From NCBI GenBank assembly GCA_003599055.1, contig QZIM01000002.1, forward strand, positions 517-64,516: a stretch of DNA of 64,000 nucleotides, written 5' to 3'. Made by a program: the position numbers and the translations under genes. This DNA is from Candidatus Woesearchaeota archaeon. GTDB lineage: Archaea > Nanobdellota > Nanobdellia > Woesearchaeales > ARS49. The notes beneath the pieces are model-generated. The model ran no database searches. It had not been told where the DNA came from and saw only the letters and a program-made list of their open reading frames with translations. Shown piece by piece: positions 5,201 to 53,979 of the stretch. Within the stretch, counting starts at the first letter, position 1, and every line of letters starts with the position of its first letter.

Positions 5201-6390
5201 CGTTCGATGTGAATTCGAGTATTATTCAGGATTTGGCGTTTGGCCGCTCGATTCCGCCGGTTCCGGGAATTGACTATCAGGTGATTGTGGGGACAAGGGC
5301 GATTCCGTTCACGGAGCGCTTGTTCGGCGCTGCCGCAAATGACGGTGTTTTGACGCCGGAGAGCGGCTCAACGCTTGGGGATGTTGCGTTCAGGAATGCG
5401 TGTGAGAATTATTATGCGATTAATATCACGCACGTGGACCTTGATGACCATCCGACGGCGATTCGCGTGGTGCAGCGGATTTTGAATAAGGAGCTTGCAA
5501 CAAGTAATCCGAATCTTCCGCTGCTTGGTTTCAACCAGTATTTGCGCGTCCATACTTCGGATTGTTCGCCTGAGGACAGTTATTTCATTATCGGCCGTCC
5601 GATTCCGGAAGAGGCCACGTTTGACCCGCTGCTCTGCGAGTGCGGGAACAGGTATTGTAATGAGGGTGAGACGCCGGAGAATTGTCCGAGTGATTGTGCG
5701 CGTATTTCGCTGCTCACGCAAAGTTGTGTGGGGATTGTGATTGCGGCCTACCCGATTGTTTTGCTGACGGTTTTGCTGGTGGGCTGGCGTTATGCGCTTT
5801 GGGCGGTGCGTAAGCGTCGTGGAGGCATTTCGAAAGTGCTGATGTGGGCGGCAGTGGCAGCGCTCGTGTTGGTTGCGCTGGTGCAGCCGCTTGCGTGTAA
5901 GGGCCCGAATGCAGTGGTGATTGTGGCAGCGCTCGGCGCGCTTTGCCTTGCCGTTTTGGAATTGTTTGCGGAGCGGCCAAGGGAGAACGTTCCCCGCTCG
6001 GTTGACGAGGCGATGGCCGCGCTTCCTCCTGAATCAAAGCGATTACTGAGGCAAAAGTTAGGCAGGCACGCGCCCAAGGAGGTGCCGCCCGCAGGTGAGG
6101 TGCCGGTGCAGGAAAAAATTGTGCTTTTGGCAAAGGACGAGCGGGAAGTGCCGAAAAAGAAAGGCAGGGCGCCTGCGGAAAAACAGGTGGCAAAGGGAAT
6201 GTCCGTCGTGGATGCACTGCGAAATGTCGCGGCGGCAGTGCGAAAAGGGCGGGAGAAGCGTAAAGAACAGCGCCGTTTGGCGCAGATTGCCAAGGACGCT
6301 TCTTTTGGCATTAACCTGGAAAAGATTGACGAAACAATTGATGCCTTGCCTGATGAGGTGAAGCGCAGGCTCAGGCGCAGGAAGAAGTAA
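2254..6390 (+). CDS. giant membrane-anchored surface glycoprotein with alpha/beta-hydrolase (lipase-like) domain
   Basis: 1378 aa with an N-terminal signal anchor and very many N-x-S/T sequons. Three N-terminal repeats carry the NAH...YNV(S/T)VCC signature. An Ala/Gly linker lies at about 3880-4020. Hydrolase block LILVHGL...VLGHSLGG...VGTPNQGSP lies at about 4790-5500. Also a CECGNRYCNEGETPENCPSDC motif, C-terminal TM helices and a K/R/E-rich tail. Confidence 0.75.
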   Translation: MANIRFEVRAEHVLAVFVIVFLLFAAQTLIRGGITGAIVLPPSGNLSCEFIELANASCPGGYTRIFGMSAQENAHVEAQNESNYNVSVCCRDLTGSNALGTGSDGTGVINLSNFTNAHAETPSSGNYLVPVYLNASNASIGCSVNLTGEGSCPADFACMGTLSNETNAHVSNCTGTGRYNVTVCCSIGALITVYLHPNTAPTDNLTANGSINGTLVNGTETSYETQDILYFNASDNDKRFLSILGQFNLSNVDARSLVIEYNQSAVAANLSGVTGAAANHTLFLANNSNNLGVHVCPNAESLADIVPGCTGEVNFTGPFPQSIPPITVSADGTDFRIENILGSGVELIFTLNTSVTNSNLSNSTAQDSVLVDSSMNDSSVSSSSSKVNVTMVNSTNINSTVSFAIEIDTILTTTNASNCRFEQTTVTGSSCLNSIMIAATGTGWEVDPSNVTNSSCSAPCNITDSNVSDSTLSNAVINNSNLTRSNATNSELHNSTVDMSNIVGLIVLDANITNQFCFYGTIIQGVNVFNCPIALSSIYSPPSSGQGGGGSSAGAGAAAGSAAAAAGAAAGAAASGAASAAKASVSVQAAAGLGTLPQCQTVIPKVTSERPEIPPDFVLLGKSDFTCFNNIADFTINVPDQYDDLRAIRCRRGVCAEVETTERAQQQLLCGEQTVREIRDEQIATVRANVSVEIPVTLETDRFFSDANRQTIIGPYELVFDGLLPPRFVGRVSIVQSGVPLPPNPRVVLLLPPVRVALDDVRQGIWFNVSVPSVRGIDVSTLTLATYQRGQWVLLGGEYDPQTDSVKVHIPDAGEFADDGEATFGLLGVVCEACTHAELVQDYTDGSSRRALILVHGLTANSLKFGTLIDDFRLNSQPWQVWTLRYPYNVSIEENARELSDLLTLHSEEFDEVYVLGHSLGGLIAQQALWDSYQRVREGGQVPWLGKVKRAIIVGTPNQGSPTADVYRALLSNLFNLSASASPFDVNSSIIQDLAFGRSIPPVPGIDYQVIVGTRAIPFTERLFGAAANDGVLTPESGSTLGDVAFRNACENYYAINITHVDLDDHPTAIRVVQRILNKELATSNPNLPLLGFNQYLRVHTSDCSPEDSYFIIGRPIPEEATFDPLLCECGNRYCNEGETPENCPSDCARISLLTQSCVGIVIAAYPIVLLTVLLVGWRYALWAVRKRRGGISKVLMWAAVAALVLVALVQPLACKGPNAVVIVAALGALCLAVLELFAERPRENVPRSVDEAMAALPPESKRLLRQKLGRHAPKEVPPAGEVPVQEKIVLLAKDEREVPKKKGRAPAEKQVAKGMSVVDALRNVAAAVRKGREKRKEQRRLAQIAKDASFGINLEKIDETIDALPDEVKRRLRRRKK

Positions 6391-6561: not shown

Positions 6562-7302
6562 TTACGTGAATATTCCCTTTATCCATCCAAGGAACCGTTC
6601 GAACCAGCTTTTCTTGCGGGGAAGCTCATCGAGCGGCTCGTATGCTCCGACGGGCGGTTTTGTTTTTATCTTGTTCTGGGTGGTGTTAAGGGCAGGCGTG
6701 CGGTTTATCGGGACTAATGGTACGTCCGATACGTTCGCGAAAGTCGTGTTGGCAGGAGCAGGAGTTACGTTTGTTTTTTGTTGTGAGAAGTAGGATGGCT
6801 TGCTTCCTGTGCTGGTGGGGATGATGAATGAGCTGACTTTGAGTGATGCGAGGTTTTCGCGGGCAAGGAACCGCGCGGCTTGGTGGCGGTCTTCAGGGGT
6901 GAGCCCGGTGATGAGGAGTTGTTGTTTGCCGTTGTGTTCGAAAACCTTGATGTATCCTGCGCTTCCGCCGAGGTTGGCAAAGCAGGGGTTTGGGTTTCCT
7001 TCAAGCTGGGCTGCTGCCTTGTTTTCGCACGGACTCCCGATGATAATTGCGTCGTGGAGCGTGATGTCGCCGATTTCGGTGTCAAGGCGCGAGGTCCCGA
7101 CGGCGGTTGTGAGGTTGTAGCGTGTGATTCCGGTGCTGATGACGGTGGCGGAGACAACGTCAAGGGCTGCGCTTTCTTCGCCGACGACGTACACTGCGCT
7201 GAAGTTGCCGTTGCGGGAGAACATGGCGGGGAAGTCGGAGATGGTTGCAGCAAGGGCAGAAGGGGCGAGGATGAGCAAAATGAGGAGGTGTGCGGTTTTC
7301 AT
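6562..7302 (-). CDS. secreted S-layer-domain-like protein
   Basis: Start moved to ATG 7302 (MKTAHLLILLILAPSALA signal peptide). The FPAMF...VYVVGEESAALDVVSA...IIIGSPCENKAAAQL...LITGLTPEDRHQAARFLA pattern is typical of archaeal S-layer-type domains. T/P/N-rich C-terminus. Confidence 0.6.
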   Translation of the reverse strand: MKTAHLLILLILAPSALAATISDFPAMFSRNGNFSAVYVVGEESAALDVVSATVISTGITRYNLTTAVGTSRLDTEIGDITLHDAIIIGSPCENKAAAQLEGNPNPCFANLGGSAGYIKVFEHNGKQQLLITGLTPEDRHQAARFLARENLASLKVSSFIIPTSTGSKPSYFSQQKTNVTPAPANTTFANVSDVPLVPINRTPALNTTQNKIKTKPPVGAYEPLDELPRKKSWFERFLGWIKGIFT

Positions 7303-7390
7303 GGCAAATTTCAGTGTGCGGCAATATTTAAACTCTGCGAGAAAACTTTTAAATAGTACGGTTATTATTTTCGTTATCAGAGTGGGTGAA

Positions 7391-10300
7391 ATGTCAAAAA
7401 GAGGGGGACTTACGTTTACGGCGCTTGCTATCTTGTTAGTTGTTACTGTTTCATTGAGTGTCGTTTCGCAGGAGTCAGGTTCTGAGGCGAATGTTTCCGA
7501 GCTGAATTTTTTTGATTTGAATAGTTCTGATGCGGTTGTTTCGCAGGCAAATGAGTCGCTTGCGGGAAGTGATGCGCCGGTCGGTTCAGATGAGGGGAGC
7601 ACAACTGTTGCGGATAGCGCAAGAGCAGGTGCTGCTGAGGCGAATGGTTCTTCAGGGCTGATTGAGCCGCAGCCCCGCACGCAACATCTGGTCCGCAAAG
7701 TTGTAAGTGATGCGCGTATTCACGCGGGCGCGGTTGCTCAGGTGCAAAGTGAGGGCAGCGCGAGCGTCATTGTTCTTCTCGCCGATGTTGACTCGGGACG
7801 GTCGGCAAGTGCGCAGGGTGTTGCCGTATCGCGTGAGCGTGCAGGGCGTGCAAAGCAGGCGTTCAGGGAGTCACTTGCGGGGAAAGGTATTTCTGATGCA
7901 AGTGTGAGTATCGAGCAGGAGTTGTACACGGTTGGAGCGGTGGCAATGACGGTTGATGAGGCAGGGCTTGCTGCCTTGCAGGAAAACCCGCTTGTTGCGC
8001 GCGTGTTGCCGAACGGGAAGCGCTCAATTAGCCGCGGGACAATCAGTGATGCGGGCATTTCGCTCAATGAGAGTGCGCCCGTGATAAATTCGGATGACGT
8101 TGCGAATTTGACGGTGAACGGCAGCAACCTGACCGGGCACGGCGAGATTGTTTGCGTGATTGATACGGGGATTGACACGTCACACCTCTTGTTTGGTCCG
8201 GTAATTGAGGCAAGTAATATTGTTGGCGGCATTTTCGGAGGGTATGATTTTGTGAATAATGATACAAACGCAAGTGACGACAATAATCACGGGACGCACG
8301 TGTCGGGAATTGCCGTTGGGAATTTCAGCCCGTATTTTGGGACGGCAAGGAACGCGCAGGTGGTTCCGGTGAAGGTGTGTGATGCGGCAGGGAGTTGTCC
8401 TGATTTTGCGATTTTGGCAGGGGTTGACTATTGCAACAATAATATTTCGGGTGTGACGGTGATTTCCGGCTCGCTCGGCGGCGGCGCGCCGCTCAACAGT
8501 TCGACGTGTTCTGGCGACCCGCTGTTTGCTTCGCTTGAAGTGGTGCTTAATGAGTCGCTGAATAACGGTATCATTCCCGTGTTTGCGAGCGGGAATAACG
8601 GGTGCGGTGCGGGGTGTACGACGGGGGTTGACTATCCTGCCTGTTCGCCGCAGGTTATCAGCGTGGGTTCGACGACAAAGGCGGATGCAATCAGCACGTT
8701 CACGGACCGCGGCGGCGACCGGTTTGACATTTACGCGCCCGGGCAGAGTATCACCAGCAGTGTTCCGACATTTAATGCAATCCAGTCGGTGAGCGGGACA
8801 AGCCAGGCAACGCCGCACGTGTCAGGCGTGATTGCGGTCTTGCAGCAAAACGAGCGCTTGCAGGGCAGGGCGCGGCTCAATCTCACAACAATTCGCCGTT
8901 TGCTGCAGGAGACGGGTGTTCCGATTCCGTCCAATGACTCGCGTGTTGATGTGTTGCACGCGATTGCGCGGCTGAACGCGAATTTTTCGCTCAACCAGAC
9001 GGCAAACCTGGTGCGTGATGTCGCGAGCAATTCTTCGATTCAGTTTTATTCCGCGTCTGACTTGGGGCAGGTGCTCGGATGTGTTGAAGTGCGGGAGAAT
9101 TTCGCGGGCGTGAACAGTACGGATTGCCCGCAGTATAACAAGTCTGCGCACGTTGTGCTTGGCGGCGTTACAAATCCTGCGCAGCCATATGTTGACGGCG
9201 CGCCGTGCCCGTTAACGGTGTGCCAGAACGTGACGCTGACAAGCAAAGGGCTTGAGATGGACGTGACGGGCTTTAGTAATTTCACAAGCGTTCCCGGCTG
9301 CGGGATTATGATTAACGAGAGCGCGAGCCTGAATCAGTCAATCAACGCGACCGCAACGTGCATCACGTTCGGCGCGGACAATATTGAGCTTGACTGTAAT
9401 GGTTTCACGATTGGGTACGCGAATGAGTCGCTTGGTTATGGCATCAACGCGACGGGGCGGAAGAATATCACGATTCGCAATTGCGTGGTGAACCAGTCAA
9501 GCCCGATTAATAATGCGCACGCGATTTTCCTGAGCGGGACCAATAACAGTGTTATAACAAATGCGAGCCTGAATGTCACGCAGTCGCCCGGCCAGGCGGT
9601 ATATATTGAGGGGAGTGAAGAGGTTGTTGTTGGGCAGAGCAGGTTTGGAAGTGCGGCGCAGGGGAATGGGGTTTATGTGACCGGCTCGGAAAATGTCACG
9701 GTTCGGGATAATAATTTTATCAGTGCGGGACAGGCAATTGGTTTTGACTCATCGGTGCGCCTTGTTGCGGTGAATAATTCAGCGTCAATTATCGGAAACT
9801 CGATTGCGCTGGCTGCAGGAGGGCTAAATCAGGGCAGTCTGATTGAGAACAATTCAATTTCAGGCAACCAGAACCGTGCATTATTTTTCAGCGGCGGTAA
9901 TGCTGTGGCGAGAAATAATGTTCTTGTCTCACAAAGTTTGGGAGATGCGGTTGAGCTAAATGAGGTTGACGGAAATGTGACGTTGGAGCATAACGTGATT
10001 TATGCGCAAGGAACCGGCCAGGCGCTCTACCTGCGGGACGCAAACAGTTCACGATTTGTGAATAATACGGTGCGCGGTCCGGGCGGCGGCGCACTCTTAA
10101 TTATTGATGGGGCACTTAATGTGTTTGAAAACAGCAGCTTTGCTACTGACTCAGGAACGGCCACGGTGTATTTTTCAACTCTTGCGGGGTCGGTCGTAAA
10201 CAACACGTTCACAAACATCACGCTTGAGTCAAATGGTTCCTATATTCGGTCGGATGCGGCTGGTGCGGGGAACAACTTCACCGCGGCCCGTTTCTTTAAT

Positions 10301-13300
10301 GCGTCCGCGGGAAGCTTGCTCATTCCGAACTTCACGCTGCCGGCGAGTGGAACGATTGGGCAGGAAAACCTGAGTATCAGGGCGAATTTCACGTTTGTAA
10401 ACGCATCGGCGTTGTCCTTCCTCAACGCATCCGCGCAAATCACGTTTGACAATTTGCCTTTTGTGAATCCTCGCCCGCTTGTTGATTTTGATGACGGCGG
10501 CGTGTTTGAGAAGTGCAGTGAGTATCCGGGGCAGTGTGATGAAGTGAGTTATAATGGTAGCACGTTCATATTTAATGTCAGCAGTTTCACAAGTTATGCG
10601 GCATCGGAAACAGTCCTTTCGTGTCCCGAGACAATTGTTGAGGACACGGTACTGAATCAGAGCCTGAATGCAACCGGTTCCTGCATTCACTTCGGCGCGG
10701 ACAATATTGAGCTTGACTGCGCGGGATTCTCGATTGATGCGTCCTTGGCTGATAACGGGACTGCGGTTAATGCAACGGGGCGCCGCAATGTGACTGTGCG
10801 CAACTGTGTGATTGTGCAAAGTAATTCGAGCAATGGTAATGCGCAGGGACTGTTGTTCTCGGACACGAACGACAGTTCTATTGTCAATACCACGATAAAT
10901 ATGACGGGGTTGAGTGCAAACGGGTTCACGTTTGATAACGCGTATGGCAACAGCATCGGGTTGCTCACGCTCTATAGTGTGAACACAGGGGGAGTTATCA
11001 CGTCGAATAGCGTGAATGCAAGCATTGAAAATTCGTTTCTGAATGCATCAGGCGGTGTTGCAATCAATGTTGGCAGCAGTTCGCCGTTTTTCACGATGCG
11101 TAATACGACTGCACGAAGCGGCTCAAATGGTCTTGTGATTACGGGCGGGTCGGAGAACGCGGTCATTGTGAACAATACGCTGGTCGGGTTAAGTGGCGGC
11201 ATAGGCATGCAGCTTGCGGATTCAAACACGCTTCTTGACGGGAATTTGTTCTACGGGGAGTCAGGAAACGCCTTGTTAATTAACAGCGGCTCAAATATCT
11301 CTATGCGAAATAATGTGCTTATTTCAACGGGGGCGGGAAATGTGCTCAGTGCGCAGGGGTCATCCAATTTATTTGTGAATAACACCGTAGTTGCGGACAC
11401 GGGAATCGCCCTGCGACTGCCTGCTACGTTTAATAATTCTTTTGCCAATATGACTGTTCAGGCAAATGGCGGAATTGCGGTCGGTGCAGAGGCAGGTGCG
11501 GAAAACAACTCTTTCACGAACGTGACGCTCCGTGCAAATGGGACTTGGGTTCAATCAGCGACAACTGCGGTAAATCAGTCATTTACACAGGCCCGCTTTG
11601 ACAATTTCAGTGCAGGGAACCTGTTTTTCGACAATTTCACTCTTCCGGGCGATTCTCTCGTCGGCCAATCAAATCTTTCGGTGGGAGCGAACACTACCTT
11701 CTTGAATTCGTCGCAGCTGCCTTTTCTGAACGTGTCCGCCCAAATCACGCTCCGTAGCCTGCCGTTCAATAATCCGCTCCCGCTCGTTGATGAAAACGAC
11801 ACAGGTGTCTTCTTGCCGTGTGACTCGTCAAGGTGCACGGTTATTTCAAGCGGTGCGGGAATCATTGTCTTTAATGTCACCGGTTTCACGAGTTACGCCG
11901 CAAGCGAGGGTGGGCTCGTGACGATTGTAAAAGAAGACAGCAGCGACCCGGTGAAGGCGGGCGCGCTGCTCAACTACACGCTCACGATTAATTCTACGCA
12001 AGGCAACCAATCGAATGCAACCGTGACCGAGTTCTACCCTGCGGAAGTGTCTTTTGTCTCCGCAAGTCCTGCACCGACAAGCGGCAATAACACGTTTTCA
12101 CTCGGAACGCTTGTTGAGGGTGTTGCGACAACAATTAACATCACGGTGCGCGTAGGCTACAGTGTTGCAAACGGAACCATTCTCAACAACACTGCGAACG
12201 TGTCTTTTGTGAATTCATCGGGAACAAACTTCTCTGCGGTTGTTTCCGAGTTCACAACAGTGCTCAATGAGTTTGCGAATGTTTCCGTTACAAAAGACGA
12301 CGTGCCTGACCCTGTTCCAAGAGGCGGAACGCTGAATTATACGGTTCTGCTCGTCAATAACGGCAATGTGAACGCATCGAACATTACGGTGGTTGAGTCG
12401 TACCCTGAGAATGTGTCTTTTGTGAGCTCAACGCCTGCGCCAACGAGCGGGAACAACACGTTTGTCATAGCGGAACTCGCGCCAAATGAGAATACGACGG
12501 TTAACATCACGCTTGCGGTGGGGACGGGTATTGGCAACGGGTCTGTCCTCAATAATTCTGTTTTGGTCACGTACGTGAACCAATCGGGCGATAACGCAAC
12601 CGCTCTTGCCGCCGCCCAAACAACGGTCCTTGGCGCGGCAAATGTTACGATAGCAAAGTCTGATGTGCCTGACCCGGTCTTGCAGGGCGAGCAGCTCAGC
12701 TATCAGTTGGTCGTGAACAATACGGGCGATGATGTTGCGGTTAATGTCACAATCACGGAAACCTATCCGCCGAACGTGTCGTTTGTCACAAGCAGTCCTC
12801 TTCCTGACACGGGCAACAATACGTTTATCGTCGGCAACTTGTCTCCGGGACAAACTGCGACAGTGAACATCACGCTGCTTGTGGGTCCTGCAGTAACGAA
12901 CGGCACGGTTCTCAATAATTCGGCAAATGCGTCGTGGGAGAACCGTACGGGCGATGTGGGTTCGGTCATTGCAAGTGAGTTGACAACCGTGCTCGGCCGG
13001 GCGAACCTTTCAACGAATAAGACTGCGAATGAGTCGTTTGTCATTCGCGGGAACACGGTGAATTTCACGATTGTCATCAATAATTCCGGTGATGACACGG
13101 CATTCAACCTGACGGTCACGGAAATTTATCCTGTGCAGGGGAGTTTTGTGTCGGCAAGTCCTGCTCCTTCGGCCGGAAATGCAACGTTCTCTTTGGGTGG
13201 CCTCGAGCCAAACGGCAGCGTAGTTGTTGAGATTTCGCTCAACCTGACGGGCGCAAACGGCACGCAGGTGCAAAACAGTTACAACGTGACGTTCCAGCGC

Positions 13301-14425
13301 AGAAATGGTTCAACAGTCAATCTCACAAATGCGTCAAGCGTGACGCTCCTGGGCTTCCCTGTTGTTGCAGTGGCAAAGACGGACAGCGCAGACCCGACGT
13401 CTGCGGGTGCAACGCTCAGATACGCGGTAACGGTGACAAATAACGGTGACGATATCGCGTACAACGTGACCGTGGTTGAAGGGTACCCGCTTAACGTGAC
13501 GCTGAACGGGACTGAGCCGAATGCGACAAGCGGGAATGACACGTTTGCTATCGGCAACCTGTTGCCGGGGCAGAGCTTCACAATGAATATTTCGGTAAAT
13601 GTGAGCAGTGCGATGGCGCTCGGTTCACTCAATAATTCAGTCAACGTTACGTTTGCGAATGCAAGCGGGGTCAATTTGACGCAAGCGGCATCGCAAATAA
13701 CTGCGGTGAGCCCGCCTGCGGCGCCGTTCGTTCAGGGTGGCGGGGGCGGTGGTGGCGGAGGTGCATCGGGTGTTTCGACAACGCAGTCAATGACGGGTTC
13801 AAGCTGGAGTTCAGCGTACCTGCGCGCGGGCGATAAGGTGAAGTTCACGGCAAATGATGCGATTGAGCACACGATGACGGTGCTTACGGTGCTCACGGAC
13901 CGCGTGACAATTCGGGTCGCAAGCGTTCCGCAGGAATTCACAATTAAAAAAGGAGTTGTGCAGGCAGTTGACGTGACGGGCGATGGTAAGGATGATGTGC
14001 GCATTTCCGTTGTAGACATTGCGTACAGTAAGGCGCTTTTCCATTTGGAGAAGGCCGCGTTCTCGCCGGCAGTTGTGCGCGATGCAGTTCCTGCTCCTGT
14101 GCCAAGCCCTGCGCCGGCGGTAGGGCAAAAAGAGGAAGCTCCTTTGGTTCAGCCGGCCCCGCAGGAGCGGGAGGAGTTTACCGCGGTTGTTCCTCAAGGG
14201 GAGAGTGAGGGGTCAGGCGGCATAGGTAAGTGGGTTGTGTCCGCAATTGTTGTTCTTGCAATTGCAGGGGTTCTTGTGGCTGCAGTCCGGTTGAGAAAGC
14301 CAAAAGAGCCGGATGCGCTTGCAAGTGCGCAGGAGATTGAGGCAGCGTTCAGGGATATGAAGTCCGGTATGAAAGAGAGTATGCAGCTTGTGCGCAAGGC
14401 AGAGCGGTCGGAAAGGAAGAAGTAA
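7391..14425 (+). CDS. giant surface protein: subtilisin-like protease + 2 parallel beta-helix cassettes + 5 DUF11-like repeats + C-terminal anchor module
   Basis: Start set at ATG 7391 (MSKRGGLTFTALAILLVV), because the upstream ORF part overlaps the divergent gene. S8 triad motifs: VCVIDTGIDTSH (about 8160), NNHGTHVSGIA (about 8290), SGTSQATPHVSGV (about 8795). Beta-helix cassettes lie at about 9290-10608 and 10609-11908. Five repeats of about 120 aa (..LNYT..N.G...A.NVTV.E.YP..VSFVS.SPAPTSGNNTF) lie at about 11909-13715. Then a Gly9 run, a roughly 85-aa domain, a P/A-rich linker, a TM helix and a basic tail. Confidence 0.85.
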   Translation: MSKRGGLTFTALAILLVVTVSLSVVSQESGSEANVSELNFFDLNSSDAVVSQANESLAGSDAPVGSDEGSTTVADSARAGAAEANGSSGLIEPQPRTQHLVRKVVSDARIHAGAVAQVQSEGSASVIVLLADVDSGRSASAQGVAVSRERAGRAKQAFRESLAGKGISDASVSIEQELYTVGAVAMTVDEAGLAALQENPLVARVLPNGKRSISRGTISDAGISLNESAPVINSDDVANLTVNGSNLTGHGEIVCVIDTGIDTSHLLFGPVIEASNIVGGIFGGYDFVNNDTNASDDNNHGTHVSGIAVGNFSPYFGTARNAQVVPVKVCDAAGSCPDFAILAGVDYCNNNISGVTVISGSLGGGAPLNSSTCSGDPLFASLEVVLNESLNNGIIPVFASGNNGCGAGCTTGVDYPACSPQVISVGSTTKADAISTFTDRGGDRFDIYAPGQSITSSVPTFNAIQSVSGTSQATPHVSGVIAVLQQNERLQGRARLNLTTIRRLLQETGVPIPSNDSRVDVLHAIARLNANFSLNQTANLVRDVASNSSIQFYSASDLGQVLGCVEVRENFAGVNSTDCPQYNKSAHVVLGGVTNPAQPYVDGAPCPLTVCQNVTLTSKGLEMDVTGFSNFTSVPGCGIMINESASLNQSINATATCITFGADNIELDCNGFTIGYANESLGYGINATGRKNITIRNCVVNQSSPINNAHAIFLSGTNNSVITNASLNVTQSPGQAVYIEGSEEVVVGQSRFGSAAQGNGVYVTGSENVTVRDNNFISAGQAIGFDSSVRLVAVNNSASIIGNSIALAAGGLNQGSLIENNSISGNQNRALFFSGGNAVARNNVLVSQSLGDAVELNEVDGNVTLEHNVIYAQGTGQALYLRDANSSRFVNNTVRGPGGGALLIIDGALNVFENSSFATDSGTATVYFSTLAGSVVNNTFTNITLESNGSYIRSDAAGAGNNFTAARFFNASAGSLLIPNFTLPASGTIGQENLSIRANFTFVNASALSFLNASAQITFDNLPFVNPRPLVDFDDGGVFEKCSEYPGQCDEVSYNGSTFIFNVSSFTSYAASETVLSCPETIVEDTVLNQSLNATGSCIHFGADNIELDCAGFSIDASLADNGTAVNATGRRNVTVRNCVIVQSNSSNGNAQGLLFSDTNDSSIVNTTINMTGLSANGFTFDNAYGNSIGLLTLYSVNTGGVITSNSVNASIENSFLNASGGVAINVGSSSPFFTMRNTTARSGSNGLVITGGSENAVIVNNTLVGLSGGIGMQLADSNTLLDGNLFYGESGNALLINSGSNISMRNNVLISTGAGNVLSAQGSSNLFVNNTVVADTGIALRLPATFNNSFANMTVQANGGIAVGAEAGAENNSFTNVTLRANGTWVQSATTAVNQSFTQARFDNFSAGNLFFDNFTLPGDSLVGQSNLSVGANTTFLNSSQLPFLNVSAQITLRSLPFNNPLPLVDENDTGVFLPCDSSRCTVISSGAGIIVFNVTGFTSYAASEGGLVTIVKEDSSDPVKAGALLNYTLTINSTQGNQSNATVTEFYPAEVSFVSASPAPTSGNNTFSLGTLVEGVATTINITVRVGYSVANGTILNNTANVSFVNSSGTNFSAVVSEFTTVLNEFANVSVTKDDVPDPVPRGGTLNYTVLLVNNGNVNASNITVVESYPENVSFVSSTPAPTSGNNTFVIAELAPNENTTVNITLAVGTGIGNGSVLNNSVLVTYVNQSGDNATALAAAQTTVLGAANVTIAKSDVPDPVLQGEQLSYQLVVNNTGDDVAVNVTITETYPPNVSFVTSSPLPDTGNNTFIVGNLSPGQTATVNITLLVGPAVTNGTVLNNSANASWENRTGDVGSVIASELTTVLGRANLSTNKTANESFVIRGNTVNFTIVINNSGDDTAFNLTVTEIYPVQGSFVSASPAPSAGNATFSLGGLEPNGSVVVEISLNLTGANGTQVQNSYNVTFQRRNGSTVNLTNASSVTLLGFPVVAVAKTDSADPTSAGATLRYAVTVTNNGDDIAYNVTVVEGYPLNVTLNGTEPNATSGNDTFAIGNLLPGQSFTMNISVNVSSAMALGSLNNSVNVTFANASGVNLTQAASQITAVSPPAAPFVQGGGGGGGGGASGVSTTQSMTGSSWSSAYLRAGDKVKFTANDAIEHTMTVLTVLTDRVTIRVASVPQEFTIKKGVVQAVDVTGDGKDDVRISVVDIAYSKALFHLEKAAFSPAVVRDAVPAPVPSPAPAVGQKEEAPLVQPAPQEREEFTAVVPQGESEGSGGIGKWVVSAIVVLAIAGVLVAAVRLRKPKEPDALASAQEIEAAFRDMKSGMKESMQLVRKAERSERKK

Positions 14426-14435: not shown

Positions 14436-14486
14436 GGGGGGAGTTTTTGGGAATGATGCGGTTCTTGTGTGTTTCAGGGAATAACC

Positions 14487-14494
14487 TTTAAATA
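14487..14494 (+). promoter_or_regulatory. TATA-like box (TTTAAATA) upstream of the tRNA-Leu leader
   Basis: Matches the TTTAAA(T/A)A element seen about 25-30 nt upstream of many genes in this window. It lies about 30 nt upstream of 14521, not of the tRNA body at 14616. Confidence 0.45.
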
Positions 14495-14520
14495 GTGCCC
14501 GTGGGGATTCGCATTCTTGC

Positions 14521-14569
14521 GCGGCGGTACCGATTGCGGCAATTGCGATTGCCGGACGCGTTACCGCCG
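14521..14569 (+). other. leader hairpin containing an exact 13-nt copy of the tRNA-Leu 5' end
   Basis: GCGGCGGTACCGA at 14521-14533 is identical to 14616-14628. CGGCGGTA (14522-14529) pairs with TACCGCCG (14562-14569). Inner hairpin CGGCAAT-TGCG-ATTGCCG. Confidence 0.7.
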
Positions 14570-14615
14570 AGGAGAACGCGCACTGGAATGTAGTACGTTT
14601 CAGTGCTTCACACAC

Positions 14616-14712
14616 GCGGCGGTACCGAAGCGGTTAAACGGGCTGGCTTCAGGACATTTGTGAAAAAGCCAGTTGCTTAGTGCATGCGCAGGTTCGAATC
14701 CTGCCCGCCGCA
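14616..14712 (+). tRNA. tRNA-Leu(CAG), class II, 13-nt intron at 37/38
   Basis: Acceptor GCGGCGG/CCGCCGC. Anticodon stem CTGGC/GCCAG encloses TTCAGG-[ACATTTGTGAAAA]-A. Long variable arm. T arm GCAGG-TTCGAAT-CCTGC. Discriminator A. Confidence 0.85.
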
Positions 14713-14758
14713 TATGTTTTAGTTCTTGATGCTTCGCATTGGCAGTTCTCGGTGATGT

Positions 14759-14863
14759 GCGGGCAGGATTCGAACGTTCCAAAAATCCACTCGCTTTGCT
14801 CGTGAATTTTCGGAAACTTTTCCTTCGCTGCGCTTCGGAAAAGTAATCCTGCCCGCCGCATAT
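14759..14863 (+). repeat. tRNA-Leu-derived inverted-repeat element 1
   Basis: 14759-14775 is the reverse complement of tRNA 14692-14708 (17/17). 14845-14863 equals tRNA 14697-14715 (19/19, including 3 trailer nt). A 12-bp closing stem (14759-14770 with 14845-14856) surrounds two inner hairpins: 14777-14815 (imperfect) and ACTTTTCC-13-GGAAAAGT (14816-14844). Confidence 0.85.
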
Positions 14864-14911
14864 CGCTTTGAGTTGTAAGCACGGAGTGCAGTTTTTTTAC
14901 GGTGCGCTAAG

Positions 14912-14958
14912 GCGGGAAGGTAGAAAAATCTCGGATTTTTCGTATCTGCCCGCCGCAT
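14912..14958 (+). repeat. tRNA-Leu-derived inverted-repeat element 2
   Basis: CTGCCCGCCGCAT at 14946-14958 is an exact copy of the tRNA 3' end. GCGGGAAGGTA (14912-14922) pairs imperfectly with GTATCTGCCCGC (14942-14953). Inner hairpin GAAAAATC-TCG-GATTTTTC (14923-14941). Confidence 0.75.
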
Positions 14959-14968
14959 CTCTTTTGAA

Positions 14969-16043: not shown

Positions 16044-16814
16044 CTAGCACTGTGCCCAGGCCTTGAGCCGGCCGAGTTCTATTGCGCCAAAGAGGCGTTC
16101 TCCGTCTCCGCGAACCCACGTTGGGTATCCCTTGATTCCTGCATCTTTGCACGCCTGGACTTGCTCATTGGGGTTGCTTGGGAGTGCGCATTCGACGTAA
16201 TTGAGAGAGTCAAATGCTGCGCCGAACAGGTTTTTTTGTTCTTTGCAGTGCGGGCACCAGAATGCGCCGTACATCGTGACGTTTTTTTCAGTGAGGCATT
16301 TGGCAAGCGCAAGGGTTGTGGGGTCGGGTGTTGCCTGTACTGCGACAAGGAAGGGGACAAAGAAGAGTGCTGCGGCAACCGCGCCGGTTTTGGCAGCCCA
16401 GTTTTTGCGCTCACCAAAGAGCGAGTATGCGGCAACGAAAAAGACGCCGAGCATAAGCGCGTGGCTCATTTCGCACCAAAAGCAGATGTTTTCAAGCCGT
16501 ACGAGCATAATCGCGTTAAAGTAGCCTGCAGCGGCAACGCCGAGCGCGGACAATCCTAACATCGGCCAAAGTGACCGCGCAGCGCGGTAGTGCTGGATGG
16601 CAAAATAGAGGAGCAAAACCCAAACAATGAATCCGAGGAGTGCGACGGGTGCGGGCCCGAGTTTGGCGTAGGTGCTTGTGGTTGCTATGGCGCACCCGCT
16701 GGCACCGAAGATAGGGCAGACCGGGTCAACGCCGCGCAGGTGTGTGATGGTCAGATAGAGCGTGATGAGTTTTCCCGCCAAAGCCATTCCGATGAGGGTG
16801 AGTTTTCGCTTCAT
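16044..16814 (-). CDS. vitamin K epoxide reductase (VKOR) fused to a thioredoxin-like domain
   Basis: 256 aa with 4-5 TM helices, loop cysteines CPIFGASGC and a TM CxxC (CFWC). The C-terminal Trx-like part carries WCPHC. Confidence 0.8.
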   Translation of the reverse strand: MKRKLTLIGMALAGKLITLYLTITHLRGVDPVCPIFGASGCAIATTSTYAKLGPAPVALLGFIVWVLLLYFAIQHYRAARSLWPMLGLSALGVAAAGYFNAIMLVRLENICFWCEMSHALMLGVFFVAAYSLFGERKNWAAKTGAVAAALFFVPFLVAVQATPDPTTLALAKCLTEKNVTMYGAFWCPHCKEQKNLFGAAFDSLNYVECALPSNPNEQVQACKDAGIKGYPTWVRGDGERLFGAIELGRLKAWAQC

Positions 16815-16833: not shown

Positions 16834-17403
16834 TCATTTATAAGCCTTCTGCGCGATTACTTTGAAGCGGTACCTGCCGGAAAGCCAGTTCACGCGAAAG
16901 CCGTTTTTCTCAAGTTCGCGCACGAATTCTTTTCGTGAAAAGATGCCGTCGGTTGGCAAAAAGAAGTGCTGGAGTTTGGGAAACGGCCTGAGTTCAAGGT
17001 CTTCAACATAGAGGTTGCCTCCGGGCTTAAGGACGCGGGCGGCTTCCTTGAGCGCCTGCTTCCATTTGCCGATGTGGTGAAAGGTGAGAAATGCAAAGAA
17101 TGCGTCGGCAAAAGCATCGGTGTAGGGGAGTGCGGCGGCATCTGCCTTCCGGATGCGCGCTTTTTTTCCGAGCCTTTTTTGCGCAATGCGCACTTGCGCG
17201 GGGTCGAAATCGCTTGCCTCGATTTTGGCAAAGGGGATGGTTTTGGCAATTTGTTCGGTGGTGATGCCGATGCCGCAGCCGATTTCAATGACTGTTCCTT
17301 TTGTCGGCAAAACTCGGGCGAGTATGCCGCGCATAGTTGCTTTTCGCCAAAGCGACCAGATGCGGCTGTTCACAAAACGTTTTTCCGCAAGGGACATTTT
17401 CAT
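16834..17403 (-). CDS. class I SAM-dependent methyltransferase
   Basis: Motif I VIEIGCGIGITT and post-I ASDFD. ATG 17403 lies just after the gyrB stop. Confidence 0.8.
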   Translation of the reverse strand: MKMSLAEKRFVNSRIWSLWRKATMRGILARVLPTKGTVIEIGCGIGITTEQIAKTIPFAKIEASDFDPAQVRIAQKRLGKKARIRKADAAALPYTDAFADAFFAFLTFHHIGKWKQALKEAARVLKPGGNLYVEDLELRPFPKLQHFFLPTDGIFSRKEFVRELEKNGFRVNWLSGRYRFKVIAQKAYK

Positions 17404-17405
17404 GT

Positions 17406-19436
<2,031 letters not shown>

Positions 19437-20835: not shown

Positions 20836-21927
20836 ATGCCCAAATTAACAGAAGGCAAAGTCACGTTCACGATTCCTGATACGCTGCAAACCAGGCGTTC
20901 GGACGCGTTCTATAACCCGAATTCTGCCTTGCAGCGCGACATCTGTATCGCTGTCCTTAAGGCGCTCAACAGGACAAATCTCAAAATCGCCGATGTTTTC
21001 GCAGGTTCAGGCATCCGTTCGGCAAGACTGCTCAAGGAATTGCCAAAGGAAGCAATCAGGTCGCTTCTCGTTTCAGACGCAAGCCCTTCCGCAATCGCCG
21101 TTGCAAAAAAGAACGTAAGGGACAGGCGCGCACAAATTATTCGCAAGGACGCAAGAACCATTCTCCTCACAGAAGGCTTTGACTATATTGACCTTGACCC
21201 GTTCGGTTCGCCCGCGTTGTTTCTCGACGCGGCGGCAGAGTCGCTCGCAAGAAAGGGCATTCTCGGGGTCACGGCAACGGACCTTGCTGCCCTCTCTGGC
21301 GCAGAAGTGCACGCCTGTCTTCGGAATTATTGGGCGCGGCCGCTTAAGGGTGAGTTTCACAAGGAGCTCAGCAGCAGAATGGTAATCCGAAGAATCCAGC
21401 TCGCCTGCGCATCGCACGACAAGTGTGTCGTTCCAATCTACGTGCACGCAGTCCCGCACTATGTAAGAGTATATCTTCAGCACCAAGGCGCAGACTGCGC
21501 AAAAGTGTTCCAAAAGGAGGGTTTCATACACTATTGTTTCCGTTGTTGTGAACGGCGGGTATCAAGAGAAAATGCGCCAAAATCGTGCTGCGGGGCAAAG
21601 ATGAGCGTTGCTGGCCCGCTTTGGATTGGGCCGCTCTGGGATGCTGAATTCGCTCAAAACGTGGCAATTGAGGCAAGGGGTGTCAGTGCGCAGGCGCAAA
21701 AGACAGCCGCCATAATCGCAGAAGAGGCAAAAATCCCGCAGGTCACGTTCTACAACGTTGCAAAATTGTGCGAGAAAAGAAAAATCGACGTGCCTCGTAT
21801 TGAGGAAGTTCTGAAAAGCGTTGCCGGTGCAAGGACGCATTTTTCATCGACGGGTATTCGTTCTGCAGTGGCGTTAAAAGAAGTTCTTGCGGCAATCAGT
21901 CGCGCATCCAGTAAATTGCGCCGATGA
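20836..21927 (+). CDS. trm1: tRNA (guanine26-N2)-dimethyltransferase
   Basis: 363 aa. Motifs FYNPNSALQRD, DVFAGSGIRS, DLDPFGSP and a Cys cluster, typical of Trm1. Confidence 0.9.
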   Translation: MPKLTEGKVTFTIPDTLQTRRSDAFYNPNSALQRDICIAVLKALNRTNLKIADVFAGSGIRSARLLKELPKEAIRSLLVSDASPSAIAVAKKNVRDRRAQIIRKDARTILLTEGFDYIDLDPFGSPALFLDAAAESLARKGILGVTATDLAALSGAEVHACLRNYWARPLKGEFHKELSSRMVIRRIQLACASHDKCVVPIYVHAVPHYVRVYLQHQGADCAKVFQKEGFIHYCFRCCERRVSRENAPKSCCGAKMSVAGPLWIGPLWDAEFAQNVAIEARGVSAQAQKTAAIIAEEAKIPQVTFYNVAKLCEKRKIDVPRIEEVLKSVAGARTHFSSTGIRSAVALKEVLAAISRASSKLRR

Positions 21928-24900
21928 TGATTGCAATGATGAGCAGAATGCCGATAAAGAGCGGCAGGTTGCTTGTTTCCCGGGCGGCCAGGGAGGGCGG
22001 TTCTTGCGCGTTTGGCTGTTCGCCTTGCGCGGGCGGTGTTGTCGGATTTGTATCAGGAGCGCTCTGTGCAGTTTCCTTGTTTTCTTGTGCGGTGGGTGAA
22101 GTTGTTGGGGCGGTGCTTGGGGCGGGTGCTGCTGCAAGTTTGCGCATCCGCAGGGTTGCCAAGCCGTACTGCGTGTCAATAATGCTGATGGCAAGGTCGA
22201 GGCGGCCGTCAAGGTTTGCGTCAACTTCCCACGTGCCGTTCTTAAGGAGCGTGTATTCTTGCGGGGTGCTTTCGATGCGCAGTGAGACGCGGTCTGTGAG
22301 TGCGGTGAGCAAAGTAAGTGCGTGTTGTTGTCCGTTGACGTCGAAGAGGACGCGCTGTCCGGGGCGCAGTTGGGGCGTGACATAGTCATCGCCAATCATC
22401 GTGTGTGCGCGAAGAACTGAACTTCCGCCTCCTCCTCCGCCTCCGCTGCTTGCAGCGGCGGCTGCAGCGCCTGAGCCGCTCACGCCGGAGTGGTTGAGGT
22501 TGTCGATTCTGAACCGTGCTCCTTCATCTGTGCACGTGATTTGTCCTATGGTTTGTGTTCCGGAGATGCAGCCGGTGAAGTTGTACTCGTTTGACCCGTT
22601 GCAGCCGGTGCTTATTGCGCTCACGCTTGCGATTTCTTCGTCTTTGACGCAAAGGGCGGTAAAGCCGGTGTCGGCAAGGTAGAGCGTCTTATTTGACACC
22701 ATACCGCTTACGTTTACAACCGTGCTGTTTGCAGTGATTTCAATGGAAATGTTGCGAAGGTCCAGGGTTCCTGCGCTGAAGTTGAACGTGAAGTTCATAA
22801 CGAGGTTTCCGTTGTTGAGGATGCGTACCGTTTGTATGTCGGTAAATGTTCCGTTTGGCGCGCTTCCGTTGACGGTGACGCTAAGCGTGCCTGTTCCCGT
22901 GGTGTTGATGCTGCTTGCGTTTCCGATAAGCGTGTCATTCGTGTCGTTCACGCCGTCTTGGTCAACGTCTTCAACGGTAAGGTAGCTGGTGAAGTGGGTG
23001 ACGTCAAAGACTGCCTCGCTTCCGTTGTAGCTGATGAGCGTGCAGTCGGTGCAGGGCGTGTTCGTCCCGTTATCGCCGGTGTCAATAACGACGCTGACGT
23101 TTGCCGCGGTGAGCCCGCGCAGGGTGATGCGTGCTGAGGCGTTGAGCGGGGGGTTGTTGGTGCTGTTTGCGAATGCGCGGTTTGCGTAAATGTCAAGGTA
23201 GCCGCGAAGGACGCTTTCGCCCGAAGGGTCAAAGGTGCCGGTGTATTGGATGCTGCCGTTGGTGTTGTTGAACGTGGTGTTGGTGAACGTGTTGTTGTTT
23301 CCGCTCGGGAGAATCCAGTCGGTCGTGTTGATGAACGTGTCCGTGAACGTGTTAAAGTCCATTCCGCTCCCGCCGATGCCAAAGCTCGTTACGGAGGAGG
23401 TGTAAAGTGAGTTGTTGGTGAACGTGCTGTTCTGTACGTCATTGAGTTCAATTGCGTGGTTGTTGTTGCTTGCGGCGGTCAAGTCGATGATGCGGCAGTT
23501 TTTGACGCTGATGTTGTTGCGGTTTGCTGCGGTGATTCCGACGTAGCCCTCTGCGTCCCCGTCGTAAAAGATGCTGAATCCGCGGCAGTCAAGCTCAACG
23601 TTGTCTGCGGTGATGGTGATGCAGTCAGTGTTGCTGCTGATGTTGCCGGTCAATACTCCGCTTGCGGCAATGTTTCCGCACGCGACGTTGGCAAACGTGC
23701 TGTACGTGGTAAAGCTTGCGACGTTAAACACATAGGTTCCGCCGGCAAAGCTCACTTCTGTGCACTGGGGTGCGGTGCAGGGAGCAAAGGTTCCGTCATC
23801 TTCAAAGTCAGCTTGTGGGTCCGGGTTCGGGAAGACGTTGTTAAAGAAGGTGATTTGCGCCGTCGTGTTAAGGATTGGTACTGCGGTCGAGTTGGCAAAC
23901 GCAGTGTTATTCGTGATGTTGAGGTGTGTTTGGGTGATGTTTTCGGTTGTTAAGGCAAGAGTGCCGTTGTAGCGGATGCTGCCGTTAACGGTAAGGAAGG
24001 TGACGTTGGTGAGGTTATTGGCTTGGTCATTTGCGACCCATATCGTTGAATGGGCGAGGACTGAATGTTGCAGGATGTTGCCGCTGCCGGTAGTGAAGCG
24101 GACGGCAGCGTTTTGCGGGGACACGAGGGTGACGTTGCTAAAGGTGTTGTTGCTTGCGCCTTGGGTGACTTGCAGTGCGTCGTGGCTTGGGCCGGTTGTG
24201 TTTGCGGTGGTGTTCATCACGCGGCTGTTATTCGTTTTTTGCAAGAGGATTGCGTTTCCTCCTGTTGCAACTGCGGGATGGATGTTGCAGTTCTTGACGG
24301 TGATGTTGTTGCGGTCAATTGCGGCAATGCCGTTCGTTCCGCTCTCTGCGTTTCCGTAGTAGATGGTAAACCCGCGGCAGTCGACTTCGACGTTGTCTGC
24401 GGTGATGGTAAGGCAGTTGTTCCCGATAATGTCCTGGGTAAGCACGCCGCTCTGTGCGACATTGCCGCAGGCACTGATTCCGCTTTCGGAAACATCGTAG
24501 GTTGTGAAGCCGGACACGTTGAACACAAAGGTCGGCGCGGCATAGCTGTCCTGCACGCATTGCGGCGCATTGCAGGCGATAAGCGTTCCGTTGTCTGCGA
24601 AGTCAACGCGCAGTTGGGGGTTAAGGAAGGTGATGTTGCTGAGCGTGAGTTGCGCGCTGCGGTTAAAGTCTGCGGCAAGGGAGTGGTCAAAGAAAACGCG
24701 GGTGGTGTTGAGGTGGAATCGGTCGCCGCTGATGTTATTTGTTCCGGTAAGGGAGGTGGTTCCGTTGAACTGAACACTTCCGTTTGCGTTCTGAAGGGTG
24801 AAGTTAACTGCGCTGGTCGTCCCGGTGTCGTCAAGGTATGCCCACTGTGCAGAGGTATTGGCTGCAAGGGAGGTGTAGGTGTTGTCCGTTCCTCCGGTGC

Positions 24901-37973: not shown

Positions 37974-38019
37974 TTTCATTTACCAAACCTTTTTATCCTT
38001 CGTTCGCTTTCCTTTCCGT

Positions 38020-53726: not shown

Positions 53727-53822
53727 GCGGCCGTGGCACAACCCGGTACTGCGTCGGTCTCGAACCTCGTCGTGAGAACCGATTTCCGCAAGGATATCCC
53801 GGTTCAAATCCGGGCGGCCGCG
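53727..53822 (+). tRNA. tRNA-Ser(CGA), class II, 12-nt intron at 37/38
   Basis: Acceptor GCGGCCG/CGGCCGC with discriminator G. Anticodon stem TCGGT/ACCGA encloses CTCGAA-[CCTCGTCGTGAG]-A. Variable arm TCC-GCAA-GGA. T arm CCCGG-TTCAAAT-CCGGG. TATA-like CTTTAAAAAG sits about 30 nt upstream. Confidence 0.85.
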
Positions 53823-53859: not shown

Positions 53860-53935
53860 GGATTTGAACCGGTGTTGGAAAATCGCTGATGAAGTCAGTG
53901 ATTTTCCGTATCCGGTTCAAATCCGGGCGGCCGCG
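53860..53935 (+). repeat. tRNA-Ser-derived inverted-repeat element
   Basis: 53912-53935 equals tRNA 53799-53822 (24/24). GGATTTGAACCGG (53860-53872) is the reverse complement of 53912-53924. The inner 13-bp hairpin is GGAAAATCGCTGA-TGAAG-TCAGTGATTTTCC (53877-53907). Confidence 0.85.
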
Positions 53936-53979
53936 TTTCAGTCATTACACATTTAAAGGGCGGCCTGTTCAAGAGAACT

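Follow-up and report, generated by a model that had tools for sequence, protein, structure and literature searches.

Displaced tRNA ends and miniature hairpin inserts at the tRNA genes of a woesearchaeal chromosome segment

The tRNA-Leu(CAG) gene studied here lies on contig QZIM01000002.1 of a Candidatus Woesearchaeota archaeon and is surrounded by partial copies of itself, upstream as well as downstream. We present an analysis of this locus and of the other tRNA genes in the stretch of 64,000 nucleotides (nt) that contains it (positions 517 to 64,516 of the contig, hereafter the window). It belongs to the chromosome of an archaeon from the Woesearchaeota/Nanoarchaeia group, within DPANN, a superphylum of archaea that are small and live as symbionts. 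On the whole, all four tRNA genes in the window are shown to carry insertions, namely those for Leu, Arg and Ser and, in a different form, that for Asp. The Leu, Arg and Ser tRNAs are intact, each with a displaced direct copy of its own 3' end that extends 1-3 nt into the trailer (Table 1). Since the copies include trailer bases that do not belong to the tRNA, they are duplications made at the level of DNA. The feature is real and recurrent, and it has arisen by insertion of DNA. The relatives compared below are divided into two groups by the protein adjoining the Leu locus. Clade A consists of the window together with L089 and L095, which belong to one genome (the sister genome; 96% identity and a fourfold-site divergence of ~13%), while clade B consists of L001, L090, L091, L092 and L093.

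The tRNA-Leu gene holds a canonical intron of 13 nt (14654-14666), because of which a default run of ARAGORN overlooked it; the same run overlooked tRNA-Ser and gave an imperfect model for tRNA-Asp. In the window and the sister genome both tRNA-Leu and tRNA-Ser have their canonical introns, which the orthologues in L090 and L096 lack; whether an intron is there thus differs between close relatives. Upstream of the gene, the TATA-like box stands at the normal tRNA-promoter distance not from the true tRNA-Leu, but from the copy of its first 13 nt, a match that becomes 14/14 once the preceding C is counted. The spacing from box to copy equals that from the TATA box to the true +1 at tRNA-Ser, at tRNA-Arg and at the tRNA-Leu of L001 and L090, and in the latter two genomes the box is found directly at the normal distance from tRNA-Leu, without a 5' copy. 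Because the TATA distance is kept to the copy in clade A and to the tRNA itself in L001 and L090, the 82 nt and the 13-nt duplication are an insertion into or ahead of the tRNA-Leu gene. The initial 5' end of the gene, now separated from it by the insertion, is probably 14521-14533. In the leader hairpin, CGGCGGTA of the 5' copy pairs with an inverted copy, TACCGCCG, around an inner stem of 7 bp (14537-14543 with 14548-14554). BLAST of ~110 kb of the window genome and its sister genome, the scope of every statement on insert copy number made here, gives no further copy of the 82-nt segment.

Downstream of the gene there are two units. The insert of unit 1 contains two inner hairpins (14777-14815 and 14816-14844) and an inverted copy of the tRNA 3' end which, with one indel, reaches 14754, through the discriminator base and the trailer. 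Direct copy 1 spans from the T-loop AATCC through CCGCCGCA and three trailer bases, TAT, and pairs in the fold with the inverted copy, which closes a three-helix unit at 14750-14866 (folding z = -4.9). The second unit (14908-14960, z = -4.9) is smaller and contains direct copy 2. This outermost copy is probably the oldest displaced end, and in the relatives variable DNA starts straight after it. When the whole Leu locus is folded at minimum energy, the tRNA pairs wrongly with the inverted copy, and this fold was not used as evidence. These results bear out what a preliminary description of the locus had reported, namely the self-copies around tRNA-Leu (a 13-nt 5' copy, a 17-nt inverted copy, and direct copies of 19 and 13 nt), the 5' copy inside a hairpin with a TATA-like box upstream (found to begin 2 nt ahead of the region it covered), the three-helix structure closed by the inverted and direct copies, the smaller second unit, and the junction that recurs at the Ser and, as a variant, at the Arg locus.

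Table 1. Positions in the window of the four tRNA genes and of the copies, inserts and hairpins associated with them
Feature	Position	Strand	Remarks
TATA-like promoter box CCTTTAAATAG	14485..14495	+	spacing compared with Ser, Arg, L001 and L090 tRNA promoters
5' copy (tRNA-Leu positions 1-13)	14521..14533	+	13/13 to 14616-14628; absent from L001 and L090, present in L089
Leader hairpin	14522..14569	+	-28.9 kcal/mol, z = -3.5
Inserted leader segment, 82 nt	14534..14615	+	only in window and sister genome L089; empty sites in L001 and L090
tRNA-Leu(CAG)	14616..14712	+	intact; Rfam 49.8 bits; ARAGORN with introns; 0/100 differences to L089
Unit-1 insert, 132 nt	14713..14844	+	spacer with T4 run, inverted copy, two inner hairpins
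Inverted copy of tRNA-Leu 3' end	14754..14775	-	14759-14775 is the reverse complement of 14692-14708, 17/17
Direct copy 1 of tRNA-Leu 3' end	14845..14863	+	equals 14697-14715, 19/19
Unit-2 insert, 82 nt	14864..14945	+	hairpin, T7 run 14892-14898, conserved junction GATTTTTCGTAT at its end (14934-14945)
Unit-2 palindrome GGCGGG / GAAAAATC-tcg-GATTTTTC / CCCGCC	14911..14954	+	-24.6 kcal/mol, z = -4.9
Direct copy 2 of tRNA-Leu 3' end	14946..14958	+	equals 14701-14713, 13/13, one trailer nt included
tRNA-Asp(GTC), interrupted	32001..32117	+	Rfam 25.8 bits, below gathering score 29
tRNA-Arg(CCG)	37837..37908	+	intact
Arg direct copy, 29 nt (28/29)	37948..37976	+	T-arm, 3' end, 3 trailer nt
tRNA-Ser(CGA) with 12-nt intron	53727..53822	+	Rfam; ARAGORN with introns
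Ser unit	53860..53936	+	-44.8 kcal/mol, z = -10.6

We compared tRNA-Leu with shuffled versions of its 600-nt flanks (300 shuffles), in which the longest match is expected to be ~8 nt and reached 14 nt at the maximum. The copies of 17 and 19 nt far exceed what chance would give. Each of the two copies of 13 nt has a p of only ~0.002, and both are located exactly at the tRNA termini and are conserved in the sister genome. Such 13-nt copies, individually only moderately improbable, would suit an explanation by chance similarity or assembly artefact. This explanation is refuted by the shuffles, which the copies of 17-29 nt far exceed, by copies that are exact at the termini, by the occurrence of the pattern at 3-4 tRNA loci, and by six independent assemblies (L089, L095, L094, L001, L091 and L090) in which the architecture of copies and hairpins is reproduced, and we give it a negligible probability. 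A 12-nt match to tRNA-Leu at 25926-25937 lies inside a coding region and is due to chance, and no exact T-loop fragments are found in the window outside its tRNA loci.

The other tRNA genes of the window show the same theme. At tRNA-Arg the direct copy begins 36 nt past the original segment and is preceded by a variant of the junction, CTTTCCGTGT (37936-37945). At tRNA-Ser the unit comprises a 13-nt inverted copy of the T-arm (53860-53872), an inner hairpin of 31 nt (53877-53907), the junction GATTTTCCGTAT (53900-53911), and a direct copy with 25/25 identity (53912-53936). All four parts together form one hairpin of 65 nt, with an unpaired 4x4 bubble between two perfect 13-bp stems. An independent Logan contig, L094, starts exactly inside this unit (TTTTCCGTATCCGG..., its positions 1-40), which suggests that the Ser hairpin or repeat breaks short-read assemblies. 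The case of tRNA-Asp is different, as a segment of 33 nt (32072-32104) is inserted between the T-loop and the 3' strand of the T-stem; once it is removed, the cloverleaf is perfect. At its right end the 33-mer repeats, in degenerate form, the 5' half of the T-arm. No bulge-helix-bulge motif is evident around it. The segment is either a non-canonical intron or an insertion scar. An orthologue of tRNA-Asp was looked for in L003 and not found. The variable region of tRNA-Asp also contains a 12-nt hairpin (32046-32057). As a general explanation, split or permuted tRNA genes and bulge-helix-bulge introns were rejected, tRNA-Leu, Arg and Ser being complete.

Overall, each unit has the form of a single long imperfect palindrome, with the displaced tRNA end paired to its own inverted copy around an inner hairpin. 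In the right arm, a non-tRNA end such as TCAGTGATTTTCCGTAT leads into the displaced copy of the tRNA, and the left arm is the reverse complement of this junction, going 6-26 nt into the tRNA sequence. With zero mismatches the junction GATTTTYCGTAT occurs in the window only at 14934-14945 and 53900-53911. The inner hairpin and the junction make up a module, GGAAAATC...GATTTTCC-GTAT, that is common to different tRNAs and different genomes: they are identical at 27/31 positions between the Ser unit of the window and Leu unit 2 of L001 and L091, while the rest of these inserts is unrelated, and a shortened form of them is present in Leu unit 2 of the window. The inserts are non-coding and ~65-155 nt in size. 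Several left boundaries of the copies and of nested inserts are located in the T-arm, and three of them (Leu copy 1, the outer fragment in L005 and the insertion in L095) coincide precisely with AATCC in the T-loop. The T-loop is known as one of the places where tRNA-targeting integrases cross over.

The state of these insertions differs among the relatives. In clade B, L001 and L091 also have two downstream units at tRNA-Leu. Their copies carry the T-stem variant of clade B, CCTGTCC (vs CCTGCCC), and the inverted partner follows the variant. Unit 1 is homologous between L001 and L090, and its interior is unrelated to that of the clade A unit 1. In L090 (7050-7290) tRNA-Leu and unit 1 are inverted relative to the flanking genes, and this tRNA-Leu is without the 13-nt intron of the window and L001; L092 and L093 have no tRNA at the Leu locus. 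After the last Leu copy, L089 has ~700 nt with an open reading frame (ORF) of 76 aa (9300-10012) and L001 has a Nudix hydrolase gene (9915-10420), a homologue of which adjoins the same flanking gene in L093 (1415-1593), while neither the window nor L091 has added DNA there. A second att (attachment site) copy at the far end of the Nudix gene insert of L001 was not found. The gain of genes after the last copy, the inversion in L090 and the missing tRNA in L092 and L093 together mark the Leu neighbourhood as a rearrangement hot spot.

Nested insertions are found at the Ser locus of the sister genome (L095 8420-9900, - strand), where two further segments have entered the unit, one of 53 nt inside the hairpin arm and one of 69 nt in the T-loop copy, precisely at TTCA|AATCC. 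In L095, ~1 kb of other sequence also takes the place of the 182-aa, CYTH and FAD-oxidoreductase genes found after tRNA-Ser in the window. In the distant L096, tRNA-Ser(CGA) is without a copy, as is tRNA-Arg(CCG) in L005, where tRNA-Pro has only short matches of 11 nt. L005 also provides a nested tRNA gene (16050-16450, - strand), in which the T-loop of an older and diverged pseudogene of tRNA-Arg(TCG) is interrupted, at GTCA|AAT, by an intact tRNA-Arg(TCG) with ~90 nt of flanking DNA, and the joined ends of the insert match the target at 11/14 positions (by eye). The D-loop of the pseudogene contains in addition an insertion of 49 nt with two hairpins, and all three right-hand junctions end in CAAGT. 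In another Woesearchaeote, L038 (5990-6240, - strand), tRNA-Ser(TGA) has a direct copy of 20 nt, made up of 11 nt of tRNA and 9 nt of trailer, 136 nt downstream; ahead of it there are an inverted copy of 6 nt, with which it pairs, and two GC-rich hairpins, and the surroundings are AT-rich.

Based on these results, we tentatively propose, with a confidence approaching an even chance, the repeated site-specific insertion of miniature non-autonomous hairpin elements at the T-loops and 3' ends of tRNA genes, carried in the pre-tRNA transcript. Short non-coding elements of ~65-155 nt would enter a tRNA gene at the T-loop or the 3' end, and in one case at the 5' end. Each element would supply a replacement tRNA end, so that the gene stays intact and the previous end is pushed outward; serial insertion would then give the array tRNA - insert - old 3' end - insert - older 3' end. 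Being non-autonomous, the elements would depend on a recombinase acting in trans and encoded by a virus, by a plasmid or elsewhere in the chromosome. At the outer end of an element, the displaced tRNA end would form a hairpin with an inverted copy of itself around the conserved inner hairpin and junction, the duplex copy of the target being the presumed recombination site. The inserted units would ride along in the leader and trailer of the pre-tRNA and would need no function of their own. The blocks from T-arm to trailer, the tandem arrays, the varying insertion states, the shared module and the hot spot fit such serial insertion, as do the nested tRNA-Arg of L005 and the decay of the Leu copies in the sister genome beside an unchanged tRNA. 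There is ample documentation from archaea of integrated elements that leave displaced tRNA fragments behind (bioRxiv 10.1101/2022.07.05.498093; PMC3293823).

The preliminary description had offered two origins for the copies, scars or att sites of miniature tRNA-targeting integrative elements on the one hand, and tRNA-derived structured RNAs or processing signals on the other. Its idea of scars is strengthened by the trailer bases, the missing 5' insert in L001 and L090, the missing Ser unit in L096, the nesting and the shared module, and stays incomplete in that no integrase (in the window), parent element or empty site for the Leu 3' units was found. Self-copies at other tRNA loci, a check that it had named, appear in the window at Arg, Ser and, in a different form, Asp, and the presence/absence differences among relatives speak for a recurrent process and not for random decay. 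The search that it proposed for integrase genes came back empty among the ~50 ORFs of the window.

Several results weigh against the insertion of mobile hairpin elements. A Pfam scan of these ORFs gives no integrase, transposase, Cas1 or reverse transcriptase. No parent element is found in IMG/VR or in metagenome pattern scans: in IMG/VR, the hairpin and the Ser 3' end have no matches and the Leu 3' end matches only tRNA-Met genes in tRNA clusters on viral contigs, and the metagenome scan for the hairpin returns nothing but unrelated contigs, most of them eukaryote-like, and a single bacterial hairpin next to two genes for tRNA-Leu. Apart from the shared module, the insert sequences are single-copy (BLAST of all inserts), and the relatives compared provide no empty site for the 3' units at Leu. 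The inverted copy, moreover, is left unexplained by att sites of the classical integrase type; its position beside the displaced end may be the trace of a folded single-strand attachment site. Finally, the arrays of L001 and L091 differ at only 5/104 positions, against 42% at the fourfold sites of the adjacent gene, and the inner hairpin of unit 1 shows two compensatory pair changes between L001 and L090.

The last two points lead to the explanation that we rank second and consider unlikely, in which the hairpin units are structures under selection, in the leader and trailer of the pre-tRNA or in the DNA itself, either as processing or stability signals or as decoy attachment sites, which would absorb insertions otherwise striking the essential tRNA. 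The compensatory changes and the array conservation agree with it (the array of L001 and L091 is ~9-fold better conserved than the neighbouring synonymous sites), as do the very stable hairpins (z = -3.5 to -10.6) and the later insertions, which spared the tRNA and landed within the copies or past them. The conservation in clade B reflects constraint, or else recent spread or exchange. Between the window and L089, tRNA-Leu is identical, and its flanks have 32 aligned differences and one single-base deletion (6.9%), compared with 12.8% at the fourfold sites of neighbouring genes. The same comparison also tells against selection, as the copies in the sister genome lose identity (2/19 changes in direct copy 1, 3/13 in copy 2, and one base missing from the inverted copy), and the Ser hairpin arm and copy are split there by the insertions of 53 and 69 nt. 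Units are furthermore absent at the tRNA-Ser of L096 and the tRNA-Arg(CCG) of L005, and the tRNA-Pro of L005 has nothing beyond the 11-nt matches. No family of Rfam 15 matches the units, only the tRNAs scoring and others being far below gathering scores; the unit interiors are heterogeneous, and no convincing boxes of C/D-box or H/ACA guide RNAs or bulge-helix-bulge motifs are seen in them by eye. The tRNA is separated from the units by runs of T (T4 and T7), and such runs are expected to terminate archaeal transcription.

The substitutions from 14515 on bear on transcription as well. Read on the tRNA-sense strand, they include 14 C>T and 1 G>A, while the background ratio is 241:206 (Fisher p = 0.0024), a bias that argues for sense transcription. 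Most of these changes convert G-C pairs to G.U pairs, and these were at one point considered as a sign of structural selection. This was dropped because the same C>T excess is found at unpaired positions (5:0, hand count), which is better explained by mutation of an exposed non-template strand than by selection on pairing. Such exposure implies sense transcription through the units, and the region of the Leu units would therefore seem, on these substitutions, to be transcribed in the sense direction. The conservation in the L001 group and the strand bias lend some support to the structured-RNA idea in the preliminary description, and as a mechanism it keeps its second rank.

The strand asymmetry, which indicates single-stranded exposure of the DNA, is also what one would expect if the copies were made by local errors of replication or repair at heavily transcribed tRNA genes, without any mobile element. 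Template switching at the quasi-palindromic T-arm, snap-back synthesis or slipped duplication could produce direct and inverted copies and longer palindromes. The left arm of the palindromes, a reverse complement of junction and tRNA copy with variable depth, and the single-copy inserts are consistent with this, and template switching is documented to create and 'compensate' hairpins and to be stimulated in highly transcribed DNA (PMC8794818; PMC3820800). The likeness extends to inverted copies of nearby sequence and to compensatory changes apparently made in one step. Template switching, however, gives no source for insert sequences that are not local or for a module shared across loci: the non-tRNA hairpin and junction common to Ser in the window and Leu in L001 and L091, the unique insert sequences of 40-130 nt without a local template, the unpaired 4x4 bubble between the perfect 13-bp stems at Ser, and the insert in L005 with a whole diverged tRNA gene are all left unexplained. 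We hold local errors to be distinctly unlikely as the source of the units.

Target-site duplication by a transposase-type element, that is a casposon or a casposon-derived miniature inverted-repeat transposable element (MITE), is very improbable. It would account for inserts flanked by direct repeats and for units with inverted-repeat ends, and casposons are known to choose the 3' end of tRNA-Leu as their target and to accumulate in tandem (PMC4779613). The repeats here, however, are of 13, 13, 19, 20, 22, 25 and 29 nt and not of a fixed length, and the duplication of the Methanosarcina casposon is 14 bp and begins at CGCA, where the duplicated block here ends (PMC4779613); a casposon-type duplication is largely refuted by this variable length and position. 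The inverted arms are, moreover, specific to the tRNA rather than to the element, and the inserts have no other copies in the two genomes searched. Neither Cas1 nor PolB is found among the window ORFs scanned with Pfam. MITE or REPIN families, with many near-identical copies per genome, were rejected in view of the same BLAST result.

The gene content of the window is of the housekeeping type. It includes genes for GyrB, DNA ligase, IleRS, HisRS, TFB, FtsZ and Trm1, and there are large surface proteins besides. The closest species-representative genomes to the GyrB of the window are Woesearchaeota/Nanoarchaeia archaea with identities of 88, 80, 79 and 76%. Three predicted surface proteins are very large (7124-14425, 2433 aa; 2254-6390, 1378 aa; 21896-25384, 1162 aa). 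The gene for the first of them stops 60 nt upstream of the tRNA-Leu promoter, and its orthologue in L089 has S8 peptidase, beta-helix and CLIPPER-repeat domains. A methyltransferase gene (16834-17409) has 0/88 fourfold-site differences to L089, while the neighbouring genes have 10-18%, which suggests recent recombination between the lineages of the window and L089. GC skew is positive in all 2-kb bins (1-64000) and the cumulative skew climbs monotonically, with no switch of replication origin or terminus visible in the 64 kb.

Among known systems, the attL and attR sites that tyrosine-integrase elements leave in archaeal and bacterial tRNA genes are similar in that the tRNA is regenerated and a partial copy of its 3' end is displaced downstream, the block of identity runs from the T-arm to the tRNA 3' end or a few nt beyond, and reuse of the site leads to tandem arrays and a rearrangement hot spot. 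Unlike the elements bounded by such sites, the units here have 65-155 nt, are non-coding and without an integrase or gene remnants, their displaced ends are paired to an inverted copy, and one event concerns the 5' end. The tRNA-Thr locus of Caldiarchaeum subterraneum likewise has a 5' tRNA fragment upstream of a complete gene with inserted DNA between them, and the process has been proposed to create tRNA introns and split genes; its insert, however, is of 1.8 kb and encodes a recombinase (PMC3293823), whereas the leader insert here has 82 nt, forms a hairpin and is without genes. Cis-mobilizable elements (CIMEs) of bacteria are also non-autonomous, att-bounded and arranged in tandem, with a recombinase presumed to act in trans, and the two tandem Leu units of the window and of L001 resemble them in being flanked by att copies, in having no recombinase of their own and in tandem accretion. 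CIMEs are kilobase-sized, integrase-less decay products of known integrative elements, beside which they accrete at a tRNA gene or another target (PMC5704250), while the units here are of ~100 nt.

The closest likeness in shape is with folded attachment sites. The attP(+) of phage CTX is a folded single-strand attachment site, and the integron R box has the consensus RYYYAAC/GTTRRRY. The outer stems of the Ser unit and of L001 have GAAC/GTTC triplets, and the boxes TTTGAAC/GTTCAAA fit the R box at 5/7 positions (by eye). Integrons are reported in Archaea including Nanoarchaeota (PMC9668308), and their attC sites are folded from a single strand. Like attC and the CTX site, the units are built as stem, unpaired bubble, stem and loop and contain an intrastrand duplex copy of the target core, and an integrated folded site predicts the very order seen here, target copy ... 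inverted copy - loop - target copy. Unlike in integrons, there is no integron integrase and no attI array, the targets are many tRNA genes and not one attI, and there are no cassette ORFs; an attC cassette array proper was rejected, as the shape of stem, bubble and stem is present but an integrase is not, and the boxes agree at 5/7. A further reading, which we judge rather unlikely, is that the units form a previously undescribed class, miniature recombinase-less mobile elements of DPANN archaea whose folded-hairpin att site would remake a duplex copy of the T-arm or of the acceptor end of the target tRNA. Recombination would then take place on a single strand, as in integron attC or phage CTX, with serial insertion at the T-loop; elements could carry whole replacement tRNA genes, as in L005, and by landing inside a tRNA could give rise to non-canonical introns or gene fragments, as at the Asp locus. 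Such elements, if true, would be a live source of archaeal tRNA gene disruption.

It is well known that tRNA genes are classic landing sites of integrating elements and that displaced tRNA fragments routinely serve to delimit them. Integration targeted to tRNA genes is thus a known theme; what is new is that the units are miniature and palindromic, with no recombinase gene found. Here the signature of tRNA targeting is seen without any element body, as hairpin inserts of ~100 nt at three intact tRNA genes in 64 kb of a reduced DPANN genome with a fourth interrupted, and the units confuse tRNA annotation by ARAGORN and Rfam and seem to break assemblies. If mobile, they would offer a route to the leaders, trailers, non-canonical introns, nested genes and local inversions of archaeal tRNA loci, the origin of which has long been debated, and they would be the smallest tRNA-targeting integrative units described.

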